A DNA stretch of 8,756 bases from Escherichia coli (GTDB lineage: Bacteria > Pseudomonadota > Gammaproteobacteria > Enterobacterales > Enterobacteriaceae), in the NCBI RefSeq assembly GCF_003334385.1, contig NZ_QOWN01000071.1; one strand, given 5' to 3'. Positions within the stretch are counted from its first letter, which is position 1. Each line of letters begins with the position of its first letter. The translations under genes were made by a program, and so were the position numbers. Below, piece by piece: positions 1 through 8,756 of this stretch. Below the pieces are notes generated by a model that saw only the letters and a program-made list of their open reading frames with translations, made no database searches and had not been told where the DNA came from.

Positions 1-99
1 AACGCGAGGCATCGTCTTAACGAGGCACCGAGGCGTCGCATTCTTCAGATGGTTCAACCCTTAAGTTAGCGCTTATGAGATTTTTCCCCGCCAGCGTCA

Positions 100-876
100 T
101 CATTTCCGGATTTTCGCCAGTGCATCCGCCATGCTGCGGATTTCATCCCGTGCCTCCAGAACAACCTCCCGCAGAATATCCCGGTCAAACCAGCGACGGG
201 ACGGTTCATCCGGTATACGCAGCACATCACAGACCAGACCACTGGCCAGGATATGCTCAATACAATCGCTGACCAGGTACATTTCCACCGACGAAAAACG
301 TGCTCCCCGGTTCACGATGGCATCGAGCACCACGGGCAGATTTTCGTCATCTTCATCAAGCCAGCAGGGGTAATCGCTTTCCTTCACAACCAGACGAAAG
401 CGGCGCGTCTGGCGGGTCAGCAACGTCTGACCGGTGGTGGTCAACGCCGCACGGATACGCCGCGCATCTTCTGCCACCCGGCAACTGACACTGCATACTG
501 CATCGCGCACCGCATCAAAAACCGCCCTGATTTCTTCCTCCGTCAGCCATTCACCGGCATACGGGAAAGACACCTGCGTTCCGTCTGCCGGAAGTACCGG
601 CAGCGACTGCCACTGACTGCCGGACAGTACAACTTCCGCCCCGGTTCCGGTCAGTTTCTGAATGGCGGAGGCCAGGTGCGGCGGCAGCACGCCATCGTGG
701 CGGTTAACGAGTAACGTCGCCAGCCGGGGCGCATCCAGCAGAACATAAATGCTGATCCAGCCCGGATACTTCGGGTTACGCTGGTCAACATCCGTCTCTT
801 CCGGCCAGCCCTGCGCCAGCAGCAGGTTGCGGGCGTGACGACAAATCAGTGCGTTCAGCGTTGTGTTTTCGTTCAT
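100..876 (-). CDS. Hypothetical protein (258 aa), last gene of the methyltransferase-led operon
   Basis: Long ORF on the minus strand. The reverse complement of 877-895 gives ttcaGGGAGAacgattaat immediately before the ATG, a Shine-Dalgarno-like GGGAGA. It follows the three upstream minus-strand genes with short gaps. I do not recognise a family; function unknown. Confidence 0.7.
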
Positions 877-921
877 GATTAATCGTTCTCCCTGAATCGC
901 CGCCCGGAGGCGGCGATAACA

Positions 922-1356
922 TCAGTCGTTTTCGTGTCTGTTGTTTTTCAGCAGGGTGCGGGCCTGATTAATCACCGCCTGACGGCGGGTGACGCATTCC
1001 GGGACGGCGAGGCCATAATCCCGGGCGGCCCATTCACGTTTCCACAATGCCTGTTCAGCGGTCTGAATCAGGGACGTCAGCAGTTCAGCAGGGACGGTCA
1101 CCTGGCGGTTTTCTCTCACGTTATTGATGATCTCCATCGCCACGCCGGAAGAAATACCGGATTCAGTCCGCTGGTCTTCCGGGATGTCCTCCAGGCGCGC
1201 CAGGACGGTTCTGATTTCATGATCGGACAGAGAAATATCCATTCCGTCAGCGAGGGCCTGAATCTCTTCCGGGGACCAGATAACCAGCATCAGCGGCGTG
1301 TCTCCCGGATACTTTGCTGCCAGCGCCCGGCATAGCGTTTCGCATGTTCCGTACAT
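922..1356 (-). CDS. Hypothetical protein (144 aa), third gene of the methyltransferase-led operon
   Basis: ORF with a strong RBS: the reverse complement upstream of the ATG reads gattgAGAAGGAGAcgaga-ATG. It sits 13 bp downstream of the preceding minus-strand gene. No family recognised from the sequence alone. Confidence 0.7.
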   Translation of the reverse strand: MYGTCETLCRALAAKYPGDTPLMLVIWSPEEIQALADGMDISLSDHEIRTVLARLEDIPEDQRTESGISSGVAMEIINNVRENRQVTVPAELLTSLIQTAEQALWKREWAARDYGLAVPECVTRRQAVINQARTLLKNNRHEND

Positions 1357-1369
1357 TCTCGTCTCCTTC

Positions 1370-1591
1370 TCAATCTTTGAAGCAGGAATCCAGTTCCAGA
1401 ATTTCGGTATACGCCTCCATGAACAGGCGATTGGCGCGATACAGCGTCTGGCGTGTCAGGCGTTCAACAAGCACATCGGAATCAAAGCGACAGCGATGCT
1501 CCATATCGTTCAGCCTGGCCCGAAGGTCACACATGGTGTTGGCCACCTCCGCCACGTCGGCGCGAAGTTTTTCGTGTCCGGCATAGTTCAT
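1370..1591 (-). CDS. Hypothetical small protein (73 aa), translationally coupled to the methyltransferase gene
   Basis: Its ATG directly abuts the methyltransferase stop (minus strand reads ...TAA-ATG). GGAGG lies 8 nt upstream of the ATG, inside the methyltransferase 3' end. Small size makes the call less certain. Confidence 0.6.
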   Translation of the reverse strand: MNYAGHEKLRADVAEVANTMCDLRARLNDMEHRCRFDSDVLVERLTRQTLYRANRLFMEAYTEILELDSCFKD

Positions 1592-2275
1592 TTACGCAGC
1601 CTCCGGTTCAAACCAGTTATCATTCGCGGCCCCCTGCTGCATGGCCCGTTGCACGGCGGCCAGTCGTTGCTGTCCGGCACGGTGATACTGTTCAAGCAGC
1701 TCGATACCGATATACCGGCGTCCGGACTGAAGGGCGGCCACGCAGGTTGAGCCGCTGCCTGCAAACGGGTCCAGCACAATCGCGTTCGGATGTGTGAAGC
1801 TCTCAATCAGCGGTTGCAGGCTGGTAACGGGCTTTTCCGTCGGGTGATGACGATTGCCTGAATATTTCCAGCCCAGCACATCCGGCAGAGGGTTACGGGG
1901 CCGGGCCGGACTGCCCTTTGCCAGGATGTAAGCGCATTCGTGGCGGTACGCGACATACGCAGATTTGGATGTGTAGTTTTTGGTGAACACGAGGTGCCCT
2001 GCCACGCTGAATCCGGCGCGTTTCCAGGCCGCCATAAAGCGGTCAATACGGTGCCAGCCGTAGAAGCTGACCATCAGCGCGTCTTTTTTGAGTACGCGGT
2101 ACATTTCATTACAGGCCGGTTGCAGCCATTCATCGGTTTTATCGCCAGCGATGGTGCGCCCGAAACGGTCACGAAAACCGACGAGGTACGGCGGGTCAGT
2201 CAGTATGAAATCAATGGCGTTATCAGGAATACGGGCCATAACATCGATGCAGTTACCGAGGACAAAACGGGACAT
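1592..2275 (-). CDS. Orphan DNA methyltransferase, N6-adenine/N4-cytosine beta-class (227 aa)
   Basis: The translation contains DPPY near the N-terminus (ILTDPPYLVGF) followed later by an FxGxG AdoMet-binding motif (VLDPFAGSGST) and HPTEKP. This motif order is typical of beta-class amino-methyltransferases. RBS AGGAG lies upstream of the ATG (reverse complement of 2276-2290 is agaAGGAGcgttgtt). No restriction endonuclease partner is adjacent. Confidence 0.85.
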   Translation of the reverse strand: MSRFVLGNCIDVMARIPDNAIDFILTDPPYLVGFRDRFGRTIAGDKTDEWLQPACNEMYRVLKKDALMVSFYGWHRIDRFMAAWKRAGFSVAGHLVFTKNYTSKSAYVAYRHECAYILAKGSPARPRNPLPDVLGWKYSGNRHHPTEKPVTSLQPLIESFTHPNAIVLDPFAGSGSTCVAALQSGRRYIGIELLEQYHRAGQQRLAAVQRAMQQGAANDNWFEPEAA

Positions 2276-2620
2276 AACAACGCTCCTTCTCTTACAGAGG
2301 ACACCAGGAGGGCACCCCTGTGGTGCCCGTTCCCCGCTGCCTGTGGGCTGTTCACCGCGTCCGGTAACGGGTCAGGCCGACCGTGGAATACCGCAGCAGC
2401 CGTCGTCTTTCTGACGGCAAGGCTATGCCGCGAAAGCGGCTTGAAGGGCGTTCATCAGAAAAGGGCTCCTGGCTGGCGTACACTGGCACCGACGCCAGCC
2501 AGGAGCGGTAAAAGCGCCCGTCCCGTGCCTGATCGGACGCGGGACACTGACCACAGGCAGCGTTCCTGCCGCGCCGCGTCAGCCGGCGCAGTAAAAAGAG
2601 GAGCCCGGCGACATCCTTTG
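2276..2620 (-). promoter_or_regulatory. GC-rich, hairpin-dense non-coding leader upstream of the methyltransferase operon (possible promoter or single-strand promoter-like element)
   Basis: No credible ORF with an RBS. Inverted repeats read directly: perfect 15-bp stem gctcctggctggcgt (2465-2479) with acgccagccaggagc (2492-2506) and a 12-nt loop; GGGCACC (2310-2316) with GGTGCCC (2322-2328); GCCGTC (2399-2404) with GACGGC (2413-2418); gtcccg (2520-2525) with cgggac (2540-2545). The region lies between the parR terminator and the methyltransferase start. Confidence 0.45.
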
Positions 2621-2654
2621 TCGGAAAAGAAAAAAGGACGCAACAGCGTCCTTT
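2621..2654 (-). terminator. Rho-independent terminator downstream of the parR-like gene
   Basis: Stem AGGACGC (2635-2641) and GCGTCCT (2646-2652) with loop AACA. On the minus strand the hairpin is followed by a U-run (plus-strand A-run ggaaaagaaaaaa at 2621-2634). It sits 16 bp after the parR-like stop. Confidence 0.65.
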
Positions 2655-2669
2655 AACAGAGTTCAGTTC

Positions 2670-3098
2670 TTATTCATCATCCGGAAACAAGTTCTTAATG
2701 TTGTTTCTTGTTTCCAGGAGATTCTGATCGACTGGAGCAGATATTTCTTGCGTAGCAGAATCAACCGCAGGCAGGATCGTTTTTGCATTATTACCGGCAG
2801 ACTGCAGAAATGCCTCCAGCAAACGAACAACTTCACCATTTTCCTGTTGTGGTAGCGTACTACTGATAATTCGTTGAATATCCCGCATAGACGTGCTGTC
2901 TGTCAGGAATTCAGCTATCAGAAACGGCAATCGTTCATCCTGTTTCATCAATGCAGCACCACACAACATCATGGCCCGCATTGCCCGACCACGTTCTTTC
3001 TGAGGCAATTTTTCAAGAAACCTGTCAGCCACCCGATCAGCTGCATTTCGTTCCGGATAAATATAAAAAGAGCACTTACGATTATCAGCCATACTCAT
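2670..3098 (-). CDS. parR: ParR/StbB-like centromere-binding partition protein (142 aa)
   Basis: Small gene immediately downstream of the parM-like gene and overlapping it by 4 nt (ATGA). By recollection it resembles plasmid R1 ParR in its central part (...LPQKERGRAMRAMMLCGAALMKQDERLPFLIAEFLT...). An alternative start two codons in (3092) has better SD spacing. Confidence 0.65.
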   Translation of the reverse strand: MSMADNRKCSFYIYPERNAADRVADRFLEKLPQKERGRAMRAMMLCGAALMKQDERLPFLIAEFLTDSTSMRDIQRIISSTLPQQENGEVVRLLEAFLQSAGNNAKTILPAVDSATQEISAPVDQNLLETRNNIKNLFPDDE

Positions 3099-4075
3099 CC
3101 CTTCATTGCCATCATTCCCAACACCAGATCGAACTGAGGATTGTCACTGACAAAGAAACGGTTATCACCCACTCCTGTCGCTTTTTTTACTGCCCCAGCC
3201 ACAAGGCTGGCACCACCGCCAACAACCATAACATGAGTAAAACCAGCAAAGCGTCCTACTGAATCCGCCACACGATGCTGCAGTTTTTTTTCCCGGTCAC
3301 GTAATACTGTCAGGATCTGCTCACGCTGTTCTGCATTCGGGATATAACGAGTCAGGAATTCATTGTCATCCCGGCCCTGGATTAGACGATCTGCAAAATA
3401 AGAACTGGTTCGTGTACTCACATTCACATCCATCGCATGCTTAACTGCTTCAGTAATGATGGAAACGCCTGTCTTGGGGTCACAATAAGTTTTTGTGAAA
3501 CCGGACATTTTGCTGCGGACATGTGCAATATCAAGGGTCGTTCCACCGATATCAACGATCAACAGCGACTCCAGATCATTCAGATCTTTCAGCACGTCAA
3601 AACCGGCAGGCACGGACTCAGGCAAGACACTGACTTTACGAATGGTAAAGTTTTCACGCCCCTGAACTGTTACAGCTCGTCTGACATTATTTTTCTTACG
3701 TTCGATATTAGCCAGATTTGGCTGATCGTTCTCATCCAGATACTCACCTAAAGGTAAAGTCACAACAATATCAACAGGTTGCGGAGCAATACCTGACTGC
3801 ATCAACGCATGATGAATAGCAACCACATTAACGTCGCTGTACTGATAACGCGTTTCTGTGGTGCGCACTGCATCCGGACTCAATTGATCAAAGCTGTATT
3901 TCTCTCCATCAATCTCATAGTTTGCGGAAGCGGGTATAGTGGCATCAGTCAGTCCCTGCAGCGTCATAGACCATTCCGGTTTAAAACTATTCGGGCTAAT
4001 TAACGTTTTCACTGCACCGTCTTCAACCCAAGCCAGTTTGATGTTGGTAGAACCGTCATCTACAAAGATACGCAT
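3095..4075 (-). CDS. parM: ParM/StbA-like actin-family plasmid segregation ATPase
   Basis: The N-terminus MRIFVDDGSTNIKL, the phosphate-2-like LIVDIGGTTLDIAHV, and HVMVVGGGASLV match recalled ParM/StbA (R1/R100) motifs. I place the start at the ATG at 4075-4073, preceded by GTGAGGTTCTGG. The ORF track extends to a GTG at 4087 that overlaps that SD. Confidence 0.85.
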   Translation of the reverse strand: MRIFVDDGSTNIKLAWVEDGAVKTLISPNSFKPEWSMTLQGLTDATIPASANYEIDGEKYSFDQLSPDAVRTTETRYQYSDVNVVAIHHALMQSGIAPQPVDIVVTLPLGEYLDENDQPNLANIERKKNNVRRAVTVQGRENFTIRKVSVLPESVPAGFDVLKDLNDLESLLIVDIGGTTLDIAHVRSKMSGFTKTYCDPKTGVSIITEAVKHAMDVNVSTRTSSYFADRLIQGRDDNEFLTRYIPNAEQREQILTVLRDREKKLQHRVADSVGRFAGFTHVMVVGGGASLVAGAVKKATGVGDNRFFVSDNPQFDLVLGMMAMKG

Positions 4076-4087
4076 CCAGAACCTCAC

Positions 4088-4300
4088 AGAATAAAATGGA
4101 TTTTTTTAGAAAAATATGGTGTCGAAAAAGATTATCACCTAGAAACACGCATCAGTAAAGACCTGATATCGGCCACAAACAGAAAGATAAAGAAAAATAA
4201 AGACAAAAACCGACTCAAATAGCACACCAGGGAACAAACAAGAACAATAAAAGACAAATGCAGTTAAAATTCAGAAAAAAACTGAACAGGTGAACGGAGA
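4088..4300 (-). promoter_or_regulatory. AT-rich upstream region of the parMR-like operon (putative promoter and parC-like centromere)
   Basis: About 210 bp of A-rich non-coding sequence directly upstream of parM, where parC sits in known parMRC loci. Loose recurrences of aaagac/aaagat motifs are visible, but I could not delineate clear iterons by eye. Confidence 0.3.
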
Positions 4301-4664
4301 AGGGGGCTCATCCAGCACATGCTGTATTTGGGTTCAGTTTGGAATTCGGAAAATAAACCACGTTAAGACTATTTTTTAGCCAAATGGCTTTCAGGAATCG
4401 CCAGAATGGCGGGACAACAGTGGTTTTGGTGTCCGAAATCGTACAATTCTGTACATCTACGCAAGGAAATGTACGGAAGTAAGCCAAATGGTTATCGGAC
4501 GGTAGGAACATTTCGTACAGCCTTTACGTTCAGTGAGTGAGCTGGTCTGGATGTAACCACTCGTTCAACTCAATTCTCTTAGCGTGGGAAAATTTCCTTT
4601 CTCCAAGCGGCTCCCAAACCGTAATTCCCGGCAAGCCCGGTAAGCTGGGCAGCAAGCTAGGCAC

Positions 4665-4964
4665 TCAAAGAATGAACCGGGGATTCTGACGCTGACCTAC
4701 AACCGCCAGGATATTGACACGACGGGCCTTATCATTCACTTCATAAAGTACATGCTGCCCAAGTAAGCTAATACGACGAACCCCTTCGCCATAGCGTTCA
4801 TCAGTTTCATACAGCCGAGGGTAATCAGCCAGGCGATCGGTTGCAGTGATCAGACGCTCTGTCACGTTCCTTGCATCCCAAAGAGATGCATTCTCAGCCA
4901 GATATTCAAACAGCGCAGTTATATCTTCAATTGCACCTGGTCGCCATTCTATTTCATAACTCAT
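4665..4964 (-). CDS. RelE/ParE-superfamily toxin of a type II toxin-antitoxin module (99 aa)
   Basis: About 100-aa protein whose start overlaps the upstream small gene by 11 nt. The sequence pattern (YEIEWRPGAIEDI..., ...RRVNILAVVGQRQN) is consistent with RelE/ParE-fold toxins as I recall them. Confidence 0.7.
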   Translation of the reverse strand: MSYEIEWRPGAIEDITALFEYLAENASLWDARNVTERLITATDRLADYPRLYETDERYGEGVRRISLLGQHVLYEVNDKARRVNILAVVGQRQNPRFIL

Positions 4965-5217
4965 TGCGCAGTTCCTGATAACGTCCCTGTAGTTGCTGGC
5001 GCAGTTGCGCGGAACTCATTCCCGGCCGCTTATCGGCGCGAGCAGCGGCAACTTTCGCTCGTATCTGTTCGTCGTATTCTGCCCGTGCCAGTTCTTCATT
5101 AGCAAGGCGTTGCAATAGTGCAGACTTGTCTGTACTGCCTTCTGGAAAAATACGAGGCAGGCTTTCGGCCAGCTCGCGCAGGAAATTGGCGTTTTCGTAA
5201 TGTGTGGTGCTATTCAT
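4954..5217 (-). CDS. Putative antitoxin of the RelE/ParE-type module (87 aa from the second ATG)
   Basis: Small ORF upstream of and overlapping the toxin gene (antitoxin-first order). I prefer the second ATG at 5217 because the minus strand reads ATGAAGGGGGAGTCAACT-ATG, which places a GGGGGAG SD about 7 nt before it. The ORF track starts at 5235. Antitoxin family uncertain. Confidence 0.6.
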   Translation of the reverse strand: MNSTTHYENANFLRELAESLPRIFPEGSTDKSALLQRLANEELARAEYDEQIRAKVAAARADKRPGMSSAQLRQQLQGRYQELRNEL

Positions 5218-5291
5218 AGTTGACTCCCCCTTCATTTAATAAAGAGCAATTACAGGTTTTTTGATGTCGTACGCATGGGTATAACGAGTCA

Positions 5292-5305
5292 GAATATCGA
5301 TATTC
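5292..5305. promoter_or_regulatory. Perfect 14-bp palindrome GAATATCGATATTC upstream of the toxin-antitoxin operon (candidate operator)
   Basis: Read directly; self-complementary. It lies about 75-88 bp upstream of the preferred antitoxin ATG. Type II antitoxins commonly autoregulate through palindromic operators. Confidence 0.3.
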
Positions 5306-5619
5306 ACTCCGATGATATTGTTTCACAGGCAGGCGATAACCGGAAAATAATGCTCATTTACCTGGCAATCTGCGTGTTGTCAGGTTTTATACAGAGTATA
5401 TAACCTTTCAGACACAGCCACCAACATATGCCGCGTCAGCGGCATGGAAGGCGGTACTCTGTGGTTACATGCGGCACAAGTGTAAAACCGCCGAAGCCCG
5501 GCGTAAGCCGGTACTGATTGACAGGTTTCACCTTACCCACCCCCGGCCCTGCCAGACAGTGGGGGCTTAAAGGGGTAGTGTGACATCCTGACAGCAACTG
5601 AAAGCAAAATGTAAACACA

Positions 5620-5812: not shown

Positions 5813-6010
5813 ATGGAATTAAAAGCGAGTGAATTTGGTGTAGTTTTGTCCGTTGATGCTCTTAAATTATCACGCCAGTCTCCATTAGGTGTTGGCATTG
5901 GTGGTGGTGGCGGCGGTAGCTGCGGTGGTCAAGGTGGCGGTTGTGGTGGTTGCAGCAACGGTTGTAGTGGTGGAAACGGTGGCAGCGGCGGAAGTGGTTC
6001 ACATATCTGA
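5813..6010 (+). CDS. mcbA: Microcin B17 precursor peptide McbA, variant with a shortened poly-Gly linker (65 aa)
   Basis: The translation MELKASEFGVVLSVDALKLSRQSPLG-VGIGGGGGG-SCGGQGGGCGGCSNGCSGGNGGSGGSGSHI matches the microcin B17 leader and core as I recall them, including the Gly-Ser-Cys and Gly-Cys-Ser heterocyclisation sites. Only 6 Gly codons (5900-5917) follow VGI. Confidence 0.95.
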   Translation: MELKASEFGVVLSVDALKLSRQSPLGVGIGGGGGGSCGGQGGGCGGCSNGCSGGNGGSGGSGSHI

Positions 6011-6027
6011 TACGTTGAATTAACCGT

Positions 6028-6050
6028 TCAGGGAGCATGGTGCTCCCTGA
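6028..6050 (+). promoter_or_regulatory. Perfect stem-loop between mcbA and mcbB (10-bp stem, 3-nt loop)
   Basis: tCAGGGAGCA (6028-6037), loop TGG, TGCTCCCTGa (6041-6050), verified base by base. It starts 18 nt after the mcbA stop and encloses the first in-frame ATG of the mcbB ORF (6037). It is not followed by a U-tract. Confidence 0.5.
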
Positions 6051-6924
6051 TATTAAAAAAGGAAAAGATATGATCAATATTCTGCCATTTGAGATAATTT
6101 CCAGAAATACAAAGACCCTGCTTATTACCTACATTTCTTCAGTAGACATTACACATGAGGGAATGAAAAAAGTACTCGAAAGCCTACGATCCAAACAGGG
6201 TATTATTTCTGAATACCTCCTTGATAAACTACTGGACGAATCGCTTATTGATAAAGACAAGGGCAAAGAGTTTCTTATTACCACAGGCGTGATAAATAAA
6301 ACGAAAACATCACCTCTCTGGGTAAACTCAGTCATAATAAGCGATGTTCCACATCTTTTCAGTAATGCCCGGGAACAATGGAAATCTGATGGTGTTTTTG
6401 TTTCTCATATCATTGATATAAAAGATAATAATATTAATGTGAGCGATTCAACACTAATCTGGTTACATCTCGAAAACTATCATTCAGACATTGTAAAAAG
6501 AATCTATTCAAAATTTGAAAGTAACCCTGGTGTTGCCTTCATCCAAAGCTACTACCTAAAGGAGTCATTCAGGATAGATGGAGTATATTCACCTGATCTT
6601 GGTACTCCCTGCCATTTTTGTCATATAGAGAGATGGCTGAGCAGGGAAGAAAAAAGCTTCAGACGTAACGAAATGTCCTGGGCAAATTTACTTCAGTTAC
6701 TGAAAAAATACTAAATGACACTACCAGCATTGGCTTTAGGCGAGTCAGAAAGAGGATTCAGCTATCATTTAATAAAACGGCGACTTCAGGAGTTGACAGG
6801 TACTTCACTGGTTAAAAGTCATGTCGATAGCTTTATGTCATCTGTTAGCGCTGATTTAATCACCTGTATTTTATGTAAAGAGCCGGTAATTCACTGGCAG
6901 GCTTGCAGCTGTCTGGAGAGATAA
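6037..6924 (+). pseudogene. mcbB: mcbB (microcin B17 synthetase zinc-binding scaffold subunit) interrupted by an in-frame TAA at 6712-6714
   Basis: The 225-aa ORF 6037-6714 and the 69-aa ORF 6715-6924 are in the same frame, separated only by TAA. Together they give 225+1+69 = 295 codons, which is the McbB length I recall. CHFCH lies in the N-terminal part and CILC...CSC in the C-terminal part. An RBS-supported alternative start is the ATG at 6070 (AGGA at 6060-6063). Confidence 0.8.
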
Positions 6925-6925
6925 C

Positions 6926-7744
6926 ATGTCAAAACACGAACTCTCTTTAGTGGAAGTAACGCATTACACAGATCCTGAAGTTCTGGCCATTGTTAAAGAT
7001 TTTCATGTCAGAGGTAACTTTGCTTCCCTCCCCGAATTTGCTGAACGAACTTTCGTGTCCGCGGTACCTCTTGCCCATCTGGAGAAATTTGAAAATAAAG
7101 AAGTTCTCTTCAGGCCAGGTTTCAGCTCCGTAATAAACATATCCTCATCACATAATTTTAGTCGTGAAAGGCTCCCATCAGGAATAAACTTTTGCGACAA
7201 AAATAAACTTTCCATTCGTACTATTGAAAAGTTATTAGTCAATGCATTCAGCTCACCTGATCCTAGCTCTGTAAGAAGACCTTATCCTTCTGGGGGGGCA
7301 TTGTGCCCGATTGAAGTTTTTTTATGCAGATTATCTGAAAATACAGAAAACTGGCAGTCAGGAACTAATGTTTATCACTACCTGCCGCTAAGTCAGGCAC
7401 TGGAACCTGTTGCTACATGTAATACTCAGTCACTCTACCGAAGCCTGTCCGGTGGGGATTCGGAACGTCTTGGTAAACCCCATTTTGCTCTCGTCTATTG
7501 CATTATTTTTGAAAAAGCTTTGTTCAAATATCGCTACAGAGGATACCGGATGGCCTTAATGGAAACAGGTTCGATGTATCAGAACGCAGTATTGGTTGCA
7601 GATCAAATAGGACTGAAAAACCGGGTATGGGCGGGATATACCGATTCATACGTAGCAAAAACAATGAATCTGGATCAGAGGACTGTAGCGCCACTGATCG
7701 TTCAGTTTTTTGGAGATGTAAACGATGATAAATGTCTACAGTAA
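6926..7744 (+). CDS. mcbC: McbC, FMN-dependent dehydrogenase of microcin B17 synthetase (272 aa)
   Basis: 272-aa ORF, matching the McbC length I recall. It starts 1 nt after the mcbB stop, with GGAGAG 7 nt upstream, and contains a nitroreductase-like RPYPSGGALCPIE region. The gene order follows the known mcb operon. Confidence 0.93.
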   Translation: MSKHELSLVEVTHYTDPEVLAIVKDFHVRGNFASLPEFAERTFVSAVPLAHLEKFENKEVLFRPGFSSVINISSSHNFSRERLPSGINFCDKNKLSIRTIEKLLVNAFSSPDPSSVRRPYPSGGALCPIEVFLCRLSENTENWQSGTNVYHYLPLSQALEPVATCNTQSLYRSLSGGDSERLGKPHFALVYCIIFEKALFKYRYRGYRMALMETGSMYQNAVLVADQIGLKNRVWAGYTDSYVAKTMNLDQRTVAPLIVQFFGDVNDDKCLQ

Positions 7745-8618
7745 CCTTATGTCCGCATGGCCGGCCACAATGGCCATGAGTCCAAAACTGAACAGAAATA
7801 TGCCAACGTTTTCTCAGATATGGGACTATGAGCGTATTACACCAGCCAGCGCGGCCGGTGAAACTCTGAAGTCAATTCAGGGGGCAATAGGTGAATATTT
7901 TGAACGCCGTCATTTTTTTAATGAGATAGTCACCGGTGGTCAGAAAACATTATATGAGATGATGCCTCCATCTGCTGCAAAGGCTTTTACCGAAGCATTT
8001 TTTCAGATCTCATCACTGACCCGCGATGAAATCATAACCCATAAATTTAAAACGGTCAGAGCCTTTAATCTGTTTAGCCTTGAACAACAAGAAATACCTG
8101 CAGTCATAATTGCACTCGACAATATAACCGCTGCAGATGATCTGAAATTTTATCCTGACAGAGATACATGCGGATGTAGCTTTCATGGTAGTTTGAACGA
8201 TGCCATAGAAGGTTCCTTGTGTGAATTTATGGAGAGACAGTCCCTCCTTCTTTACTGGTTACAGGGAAAAGCCAATACTGAAATATCCAGTGAAATAGTA
8301 ACAGGCATAAATCATATTGATGAGATTTTACTGGCTCTCAGGTCAGAAGGAGATATCAGGATTTTCGATATCACCCTGCCCGGAGCTCCTGGACACGCAG
8401 TACTAACCCTGTATGGCACAAAAAACAAAATCAGTCGAATAAAATACAGTACCGGATTATCCTATGCTAATAGTCTGAAAAAAGCACTTTGTAAATCCGT
8501 AGTGGAATTGTGGCAATCGTATATATGCCTGCACAACTTTCTTATTGGCGGTTATACTGATGATGACATTATTGATAGTTACCAGCGTCACTTTATGTCA
8601 TGCAACAAGTACGGGTAA
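7725..8618 (+). pseudogene. mcbD: mcbD (YcaO-type cyclodehydratase of microcin B17 synthetase) truncated by an IS1-family insertion
   Basis: The ORF starts MINVYSNLMSAW... and overlaps the mcbC end by 20 nt. It runs 296 mcbD codons and then ends in G-stop, where the codons are supplied by the IS1 terminal repeat (GG-TAA-TG). McbD is about 396 aa by recollection, so roughly the C-terminal 100 residues are missing. Confidence 0.88.
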
Positions 8619-8636
8619 TGACTCCAACTTACTGAT
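8614..8636. repeat. IS1 terminal inverted repeat (23 bp)
   Basis: GGTAATGACTCCAACTTACTGAT matches the IS1 terminal inverted repeat consensus. It directly abuts mcbD coding sequence. Confidence 0.75.
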
Positions 8637-8756
8637 AGTGTTTTATGTTCAGATAATGCCCGATGACCTTGTCATGCAACTCCACCGATTTTGAGAACGA
8701 CAGTAACTTCCGTCCCAGCCTTGCCAGATGTTGTCTCAGATTCAGATTATGTCGCT
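8629..8756 (-). CDS. insB: IS1 transposase InsB, C-terminal fragment (5' end outside the window)
   Basis: The minus-strand translation ...[41 protein letters not shown]-stop matches the IS1 InsB C-terminus from memory. The stop TAA is the complement of 8629-8631. Confidence 0.75.

Follow-up and report, generated by a model that had tools for sequence, protein, structure and literature searches.

The microcin B17 operon of Escherichia coli includes the gene mcbB. In the window analysed here, the 8756 nt that make up the whole of contig QOWN01000071.1 of assembly GCA_003334385.1, the mcbB reading frame is broken by a TAA codon. This raises three questions: whether the stop is real, which codon it replaced and whether anything functional is left of the gene on either side of it. 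We find that the TAA at 6712-6714 is very probably a genuine and vertically inherited nonsense mutation in mcbB, carried by a plasmid lineage whose mcb genes are a non-functional remnant. Contigs compared with the window are designated L001, L003 and so on in what follows.

The interrupted mcbB frame and its ancestral codon

The mcbB pseudogene lies at 6037..6924 on the plus strand and has 295 codons including the internal stop; McbB in PDB entry 6GOS is a single chain of 295 amino acids. The TAA at 6712-6714 is in frame and divides the gene into pieces of 225 and 69 codons (6037..6714 and 6715..6924, both on the plus strand), the second of which is opened by an ATG at 6715 (Met227) directly 3′ of the stop. 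That these two open reading frames share a frame and are split only by the TAA, as the original prediction stated, was confirmed in the sequence, and so was the naming of the gene: the read-through translation is the McbB sequence, nearly identical to the 6GOS chain and differing from reference McbB only by Q226* and N265S. The predicted summed length of 295 needs a small correction, since 225 and 69 make 294, and 295 is reached on adding the mutated codon.

In a profile search, the two pieces cover consecutive stretches of the model TIGR04424 (metallo_McbB, cut-off 65 bits) and jointly cover the whole of it. The N-terminal piece reaches 209.6 bits, over positions 1-215 of the 286 in the profile, and the C-terminal piece 64.2 bits, over positions 222-286, which on its own is just below the cut-off. 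PF27891 is found among the precomputed annotations of both pieces. The uninterrupted frame of about 295 codons that McbB would need is absent, with TAA at codon 226 where 6GOS has Gln226, so that by its sequence the locus is to be classed as a pseudogene of the McbB family and not as a functional member. The RefSeq protein WP_250112343.1 (214 aa) and the calls of the 69-aa ORF are fragments of a pseudogene and do not represent separate proteins.

The ancestral codon was identified by alignment to reference mcbB, as the original prediction had proposed. In NZ_CP049848.1 and NZ_CP032262.1, plasmids in which McbB is annotated as one gene, position 6712 is C and the codon hence CAA (Gln226), and Gln226 is also present in the solved McbB chain, one polypeptide of 295 amino acids (PDB 6GOS, 6GRG, 6GRH, 6GRI). 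Among the contigs compared, L001 and L003 have C here, and so does the nearest intact haplotype, L032-L039, which has the full mcbA-G operon. Two contigs of this haplotype (L035 and L039) have the mcbB of the window apart from 6712 and the synonymous site 6744. The other McbB difference from the reference, S265, is found in intact McbB on about 70 contigs with complete mcbA-G operons. We also used a 51-nt probe around 6712, in which 6712 is the sole site that differs from the references; the T-containing 51-mer of the window was found in none of 104 PLSDB plasmid hits and none of 100 plasmid hits from complete E. coli genomes. Since every intact reference examined has CAA, the stop arose through one C>T transition, at 6712 (CAA>TAA, Gln226>stop), the one-base origin that had been predicted. 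Orthologues have a sense codon at this place and one base accounts for the stop, as is required of a nonsense pseudogene. The case that would have spoken for two genes, a reference McbB that ends here and is followed by a separate gene, was not found: the plasmid and complete-genome records checked have a single McbB gene annotated across the site with no separate downstream gene, and 6GOS is one chain. Among the 2655 single-base changes possible in mcbB, 138 (5.2%) create a stop, and once selection is relaxed, a single nonsense mutation among so few substitutions is nothing remarkable.

The consequence for the protein can be read against the McbB4C2D2 crystal structure, in which McbB consists of an N-terminal RRE domain and an E1-like domain 2, with an adaptor helix that ends at about Leu222 (PMC6395948). 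[quoted passage not shown] The stop at codon 226 falls just past the adaptor helix, and the last 70 residues (226-295), which include two of the four zinc ligands, are lost. By the domain limits of that structure (PMC6395948), the N-terminal piece retains the RRE domain, most of domain 2, the adaptor helix, Cys192 and Cys195. The cysteines of McbB lie at 192 and 195 (CHFC), 277 and 280 (CILC) and 290 and 292 (CSC), the last four of these in the C-terminal piece. All four ligand codons are thus present in the DNA but not on one polypeptide, and the stop parts the two halves of the zinc site, as had been predicted. Of the motifs then assigned to that site, CHFC and CSC do belong to it, and CILC does not, Cys277 and Cys280 not being ligands (PMC6395948). 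With Cys290 and Cys292 lost, the zinc tether of the C-terminal part to domain 2 would be gone, and the 225-aa product is expected to be misfolded or inactive, with loss of function. McbB is the leader-binding scaffold subunit of the microcin B17 synthetase.

The 69-aa ORF would be a leftover and not a gene. No Shine-Dalgarno-like sequence was seen in the 20 nt upstream of 6715 (AGTTACTGAAAAAATACTAA), which agrees with the original prediction; its further statement that independent translation looks unlikely is slightly too strong, since the adjoining TAA and ATG could allow reinitiation, and a low level of the C-terminal piece may be produced in this way, though in this operon the point has no bearing. 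Between 5600 and 7100 there were five promoter-like sites against 4.7 expected, a number not above chance, and no terminator.

Spread of the allele

Because the window is a short draft contig, the T at 6712 could be a sequencing or assembly error that hides an intact gene, and artefactual splits of mcbB do exist in public data. In the examples that we met, one nucleotide is deleted from the A6 run at 6698-6703, near 6703, in four indel-rich contigs (L022, L023, L025, L029). Against such an error in the window, the change is a substitution and not a homopolymer indel, and all contigs of the lineage that were examined, which stem from independent isolates and metagenomes, have the identical T. 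The independent assemblies effectively refute a sequencing error, and we give that reading hardly any weight.

The spread of the allele was followed through its products and through the DNA. The exact 214-aa N-terminal piece, which starts from Met12 (WP_250112343.1), is found on 15 contigs, and the exact 69-aa C-terminal piece on 33. T at 6712 is retained in the DNA of L004-L014 and L018-L020, contigs of the same backbone that were fetched through truncated McbD or truncated McbB; three of them (L014, L018, L019) match the window with 100% identity throughout the region. The contigs with the allele represent one plasmid lineage, in which all those examined have the T, and they cover at least five isolate assemblies and at least eight gut metagenome assemblies. 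The other isolates with T at 6712 are GCA_900447915.1, GCA_002245075.1, GCA_040919985.1 and GCA_002190145.1. The lineage is in no complete genome and no PLSDB record. The allele has thus been seen independently, and together with the other signs of decay described below this is what marks a nonsense pseudogene. Exact look-up did not find the 225-aa product from Met1 or the 65-aa McbA, a failure that is due to the start choice of gene callers and to the content of the collection, not to absence of the allele.

Two groups of contigs that might be taken for further witnesses were set aside. The Logan contigs L017, L021 and L026-L030 were considered as independent TAA haplotypes and rejected, since their T at 6712 stands in a mosaic that mixes alleles of the lineage with those of the reference. 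All of them stop exactly at the junction of mcbD and IS1 (8613), whereas the Logan contig of pure lineage, L020, continues 30 nt into IS1. The mosaic contigs fit mixed samples with collapsed SNP bubbles and are not counted as independent haplotypes; if they were real haplotypes, the distribution of the allele would be wider or recombinant and would extend beyond one lineage.

The other group consists of the four contigs named above with a 215-aa and a 69-aa ORF. These splits were rejected as instances of the same lesion, since codon 226 is CAA in them and they are therefore unrelated to the TAA. In each, the 1-nt deletion in the A6 run yields a 215-aa ORF that overlaps the same 69-aa ORF through ATGA. 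The deletions are probably sequencing artefacts, as the contigs carry other homopolymer indels, and the A6 run is a recurrent source of false calls of a split McbB.

Decay of the operon and its plasmid setting

The microcin B17 precursor gene mcbA (5813..6010, plus strand) encodes 65 amino acids and matches NF041037 (microcin_B17) with 123 bits. Its poly-Gly linker is four Gly shorter than that of the 69-aa reference, which corresponds to a 12-nt in-frame gap relative to L003 in the GGC repeats near 5908. The 65-aa form is also annotated in the intact operon L001 and is therefore not a lesion in itself; natural variants of McbA with a shortened poly-Gly stretch have been reported (PMC6722960). 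McbA calls of 65, 66, 68, 69 and 70 aa in the fetched contigs show that the length of the GGC repeat is polymorphic.

The gene mcbC (6926..7744, plus strand) encodes a SagB-type dehydrogenase of 272 aa, and this exact protein is found on 101 contigs. Compared with the common allele it has G114S, Y127C and A145S (window positions 7265, 7305 and 7358). G114S and Y127C are specific to the lineage cut by IS1, while A145S also occurs in the intact haplotypes L033, L035 and L039. In the mcb region as a whole, six sites set the window apart from the common reference as well as from the nearest intact haplotype: one is intergenic, one is the nonsense mutation, two are the mcbC missense changes G114S and Y127C, and two are synonymous. 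Such a spectrum, small as the numbers are, is compatible with relaxed constraint.

Sub-branches of the lineage have acquired further changes. One (L004, L006-L011) has a 4-bp TGGC deletion at 6634-6637 that shifts the mcbB frame near residue 200, as well as G53D in McbA (window 5970); the 188-aa product of this mcbB is found on 59 contigs. Another (L005, L013, L020) has a 9-bp tandem duplication (TATTGCATT) in mcbC, after window position 7495.

The YcaO cyclodehydratase gene mcbD (7725..8613, plus strand) is cut after codon 296 of 396, and homology with intact operons ends at 8613. Full-length McbD is 396 aa in L032-L039; in the window IS1 begins after codon 296, and the resulting McbD product of 297 aa, whose end is derived from IS1, is found on 95 contigs. 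The segment from 8614 to 8756 is the end of an IS1F-like IS1 (GGTAATGACTCC...). Its terminal sequence and its identity to annotated IS1 copies place it in the IS1 family; it is 100% identical to copies of the IS1F family, and the window ends inside it.

The sister contig L006 has a complete 768-bp IS1 at 10890-11657, followed by non-mcb DNA, with no target duplication. No mcbD 3′ end and no mcbEFG, as judged against L001, were found within 10 kb after IS1 in the sister contigs L004-L008, and the window itself, which stops inside the element, shows no mcbE, mcbF or mcbG downstream of mcbD. That in the longer sister contigs a complete IS1 leads into unrelated DNA, while the mcbD 3′ end and mcbEFG are absent over 10 kb, indicates a deletion or rearrangement rather than a simple insertion. 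The export and immunity genes appear to have been lost from the lineage; a displaced segment from the mcbD 3′ end through mcbEFG may lie elsewhere in the genome, and mcbD would be broken even so. These matters had escaped the original prediction, namely the mcbD cut by IS1 from 8614, the disappearance of mcbEFG in sister contigs and the inheritance of the allele within a decaying lineage.

The backbone is that of an IncF-type E. coli plasmid. Positions 1-5557 of the window have 93-95% identity to the best PLSDB plasmids, in an arrangement unlike that of the common mcb plasmids. The genes upstream of the operon are all on the minus strand and comprise a 258-aa ORF, DUF1380, YubE and an N6/N4 DNA methylase (1592-2275), stbB and stbA/parM (2670-4087), and a ParE-type toxin-antitoxin pair (4665-5235). 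The 258-aa ORF (100-876) was considered as a truncated form of a 327-aa gene (L004, 2173-3156), and this was rejected, the 327-aa form being frameshifted with a junk C-terminus and the form in the window normal. Positions 1-76 of the window are the terminal 76 nt of IS421 (IS4-like), which occurs in more than one copy in 2144 of the 5426 complete E. coli genomes; this end is missing here in L004-L006 and present in L014. With the IS421 end at the left and IS1 at the right, the contig is bounded by IS repeats on both sides.

A set of small genes flanks the mcb region in several contigs, comprising 85-aa and 196-aa ORFs, DUF6404 and an ORF of 111-115 aa resembling colicin E1 and microcin immunity proteins (weak PF03526 hit). 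The set lies about 4-6 kb beyond IS1 in L004-L008 and upstream of mcbA in L033, L035, L038 and L039, and colicin fragments are found near it. That it stands on differing sides of the operon suggests repeated rearrangement of one bacteriocin-plasmid family.

Alternative readings and known systems

The preferred reading is that the codon change in mcbB is one of several lesions in an operon in which an IS1-associated rearrangement has broken off mcbD after codon 296, with the rest of mcbD and the export and immunity genes mcbEFG missing; from this we infer relaxed selection on the operon. One might instead suppose that the split gene still works, by reinitiation from UAA to AUG and reassembly of the 225-aa and 69-aa chains around zinc into a working scaffold. 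Termination-reinitiation at adjacent stop and start codons without a Shine-Dalgarno sequence is established in bacteria, stop and start are directly adjacent here, the break falls just after the adaptor helix (its end is near Leu222) and the zinc site could bridge both chains. Such a two-chain McbB would nevertheless have no pathway to serve, given that McbD is truncated by IS1 and that mcbEFG are absent within 10 kb past IS1 in sister contigs. Moreover, most of the lineage has the 4-bp frameshift that wrecks the N-terminal piece from about residue 200 (59 contigs, against 15 with the exact piece), and this added damage speaks against the split form being maintained by selection; nor was any intact operon with the split found in PLSDB, in the plasmids of complete genomes or among the fetched contigs. 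We consider a two-chain McbB very improbable. The same low standing goes to the broader idea that the split is tolerated, whether because both fragments reassemble via zinc or because the 225-aa piece can by itself still bind the McbA leader, using its RRE domain, with partial activity in sequestering or scaffolding McbA. Less credible again, to the point of being negligible, is that the stop is read through to full-length McbB, whether with an ochre suppressor tRNA, which the original prediction had brought up, or through programmed readthrough; this is a formal possibility for which we found no support. Of the three stop codons, E. coli terminates most efficiently at UAA, the window has neither a tRNA nor a suppressor gene, known RNA families and recoding elements are likewise absent from it (Rfam, gathering threshold), and the operon is broken elsewhere anyway.

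The inherited nonsense mutation leaves room for a refinement, which we hold only tentatively and with some doubt, concerning the order of events. The TAA may have come first and produced an immune non-producer (‘cheater’), with IS1 later taking out a remainder that had become useless; conversely, IS1 may have come first, the TAA being a later neutral change. The refinement is favoured by intact haplotypes whose mcbB departs from that of the window at no more than 6712 and one synonymous site, and by two contigs that break exactly at the polymorphic site, L016 ending at 6711 and L024 starting at 6713 and continuing into intact mcbD-G; these breaks hint that both alleles were present together in those samples. 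On the other side, every unambiguous contig with T at 6712 is also cut by IS1, and the exact ends of the mosaic Logan contigs at the junction fit mixed samples, not a haplotype with the TAA only.

On the nonsense reading, strains of this lineage should be scored as non-producers of microcin B17 despite having mcbA, an mcbB fragment and mcbC, and they are probably without the immunity genes too. This is relevant to annotation and to bacteriocin typing from draft genomes and metagenomes, where typing goes by presence or absence of mcb genes.

The closest known protein is McbB of the E. coli synthetase McbBCD (6GOS, 6GRG, 6GRH, 6GRI), to which the window is nearly identical over 295 codons, with the gene in the same position between mcbA and mcbC. 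The window likewise encodes all four zinc-ligand cysteines; it differs by TAA instead of CAA at codon 226 and by N265S, and a single chain of 295 amino acids is impossible. Intact mcbABCDEFG operons of IncF plasmids (NZ_CP049848.1 pEcoUTI1d, NZ_CP032262.1 and L032-L039) have 99.2-99.7% DNA identity to the window from mcbA to mcbD codon 296. Unlike them, the window carries the mcbB nonsense mutation, has two McbC substitutions specific to its lineage and runs into IS1 where the mcbD 3′ end should follow; its upstream backbone differs too, with the ParE-type toxin-antitoxin pair and stbAB on the opposite strand. The event is of an already-known kind, the commonplace decay of a pseudogene within a bacteriocin operon that is dead. 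Pseudogenisation of bacteriocin operons by point mutation and IS elements in enterobacterial plasmids follows the same multi-lesion pattern, here with sub-branches adding more, and nothing in the present case is unusual beside it.
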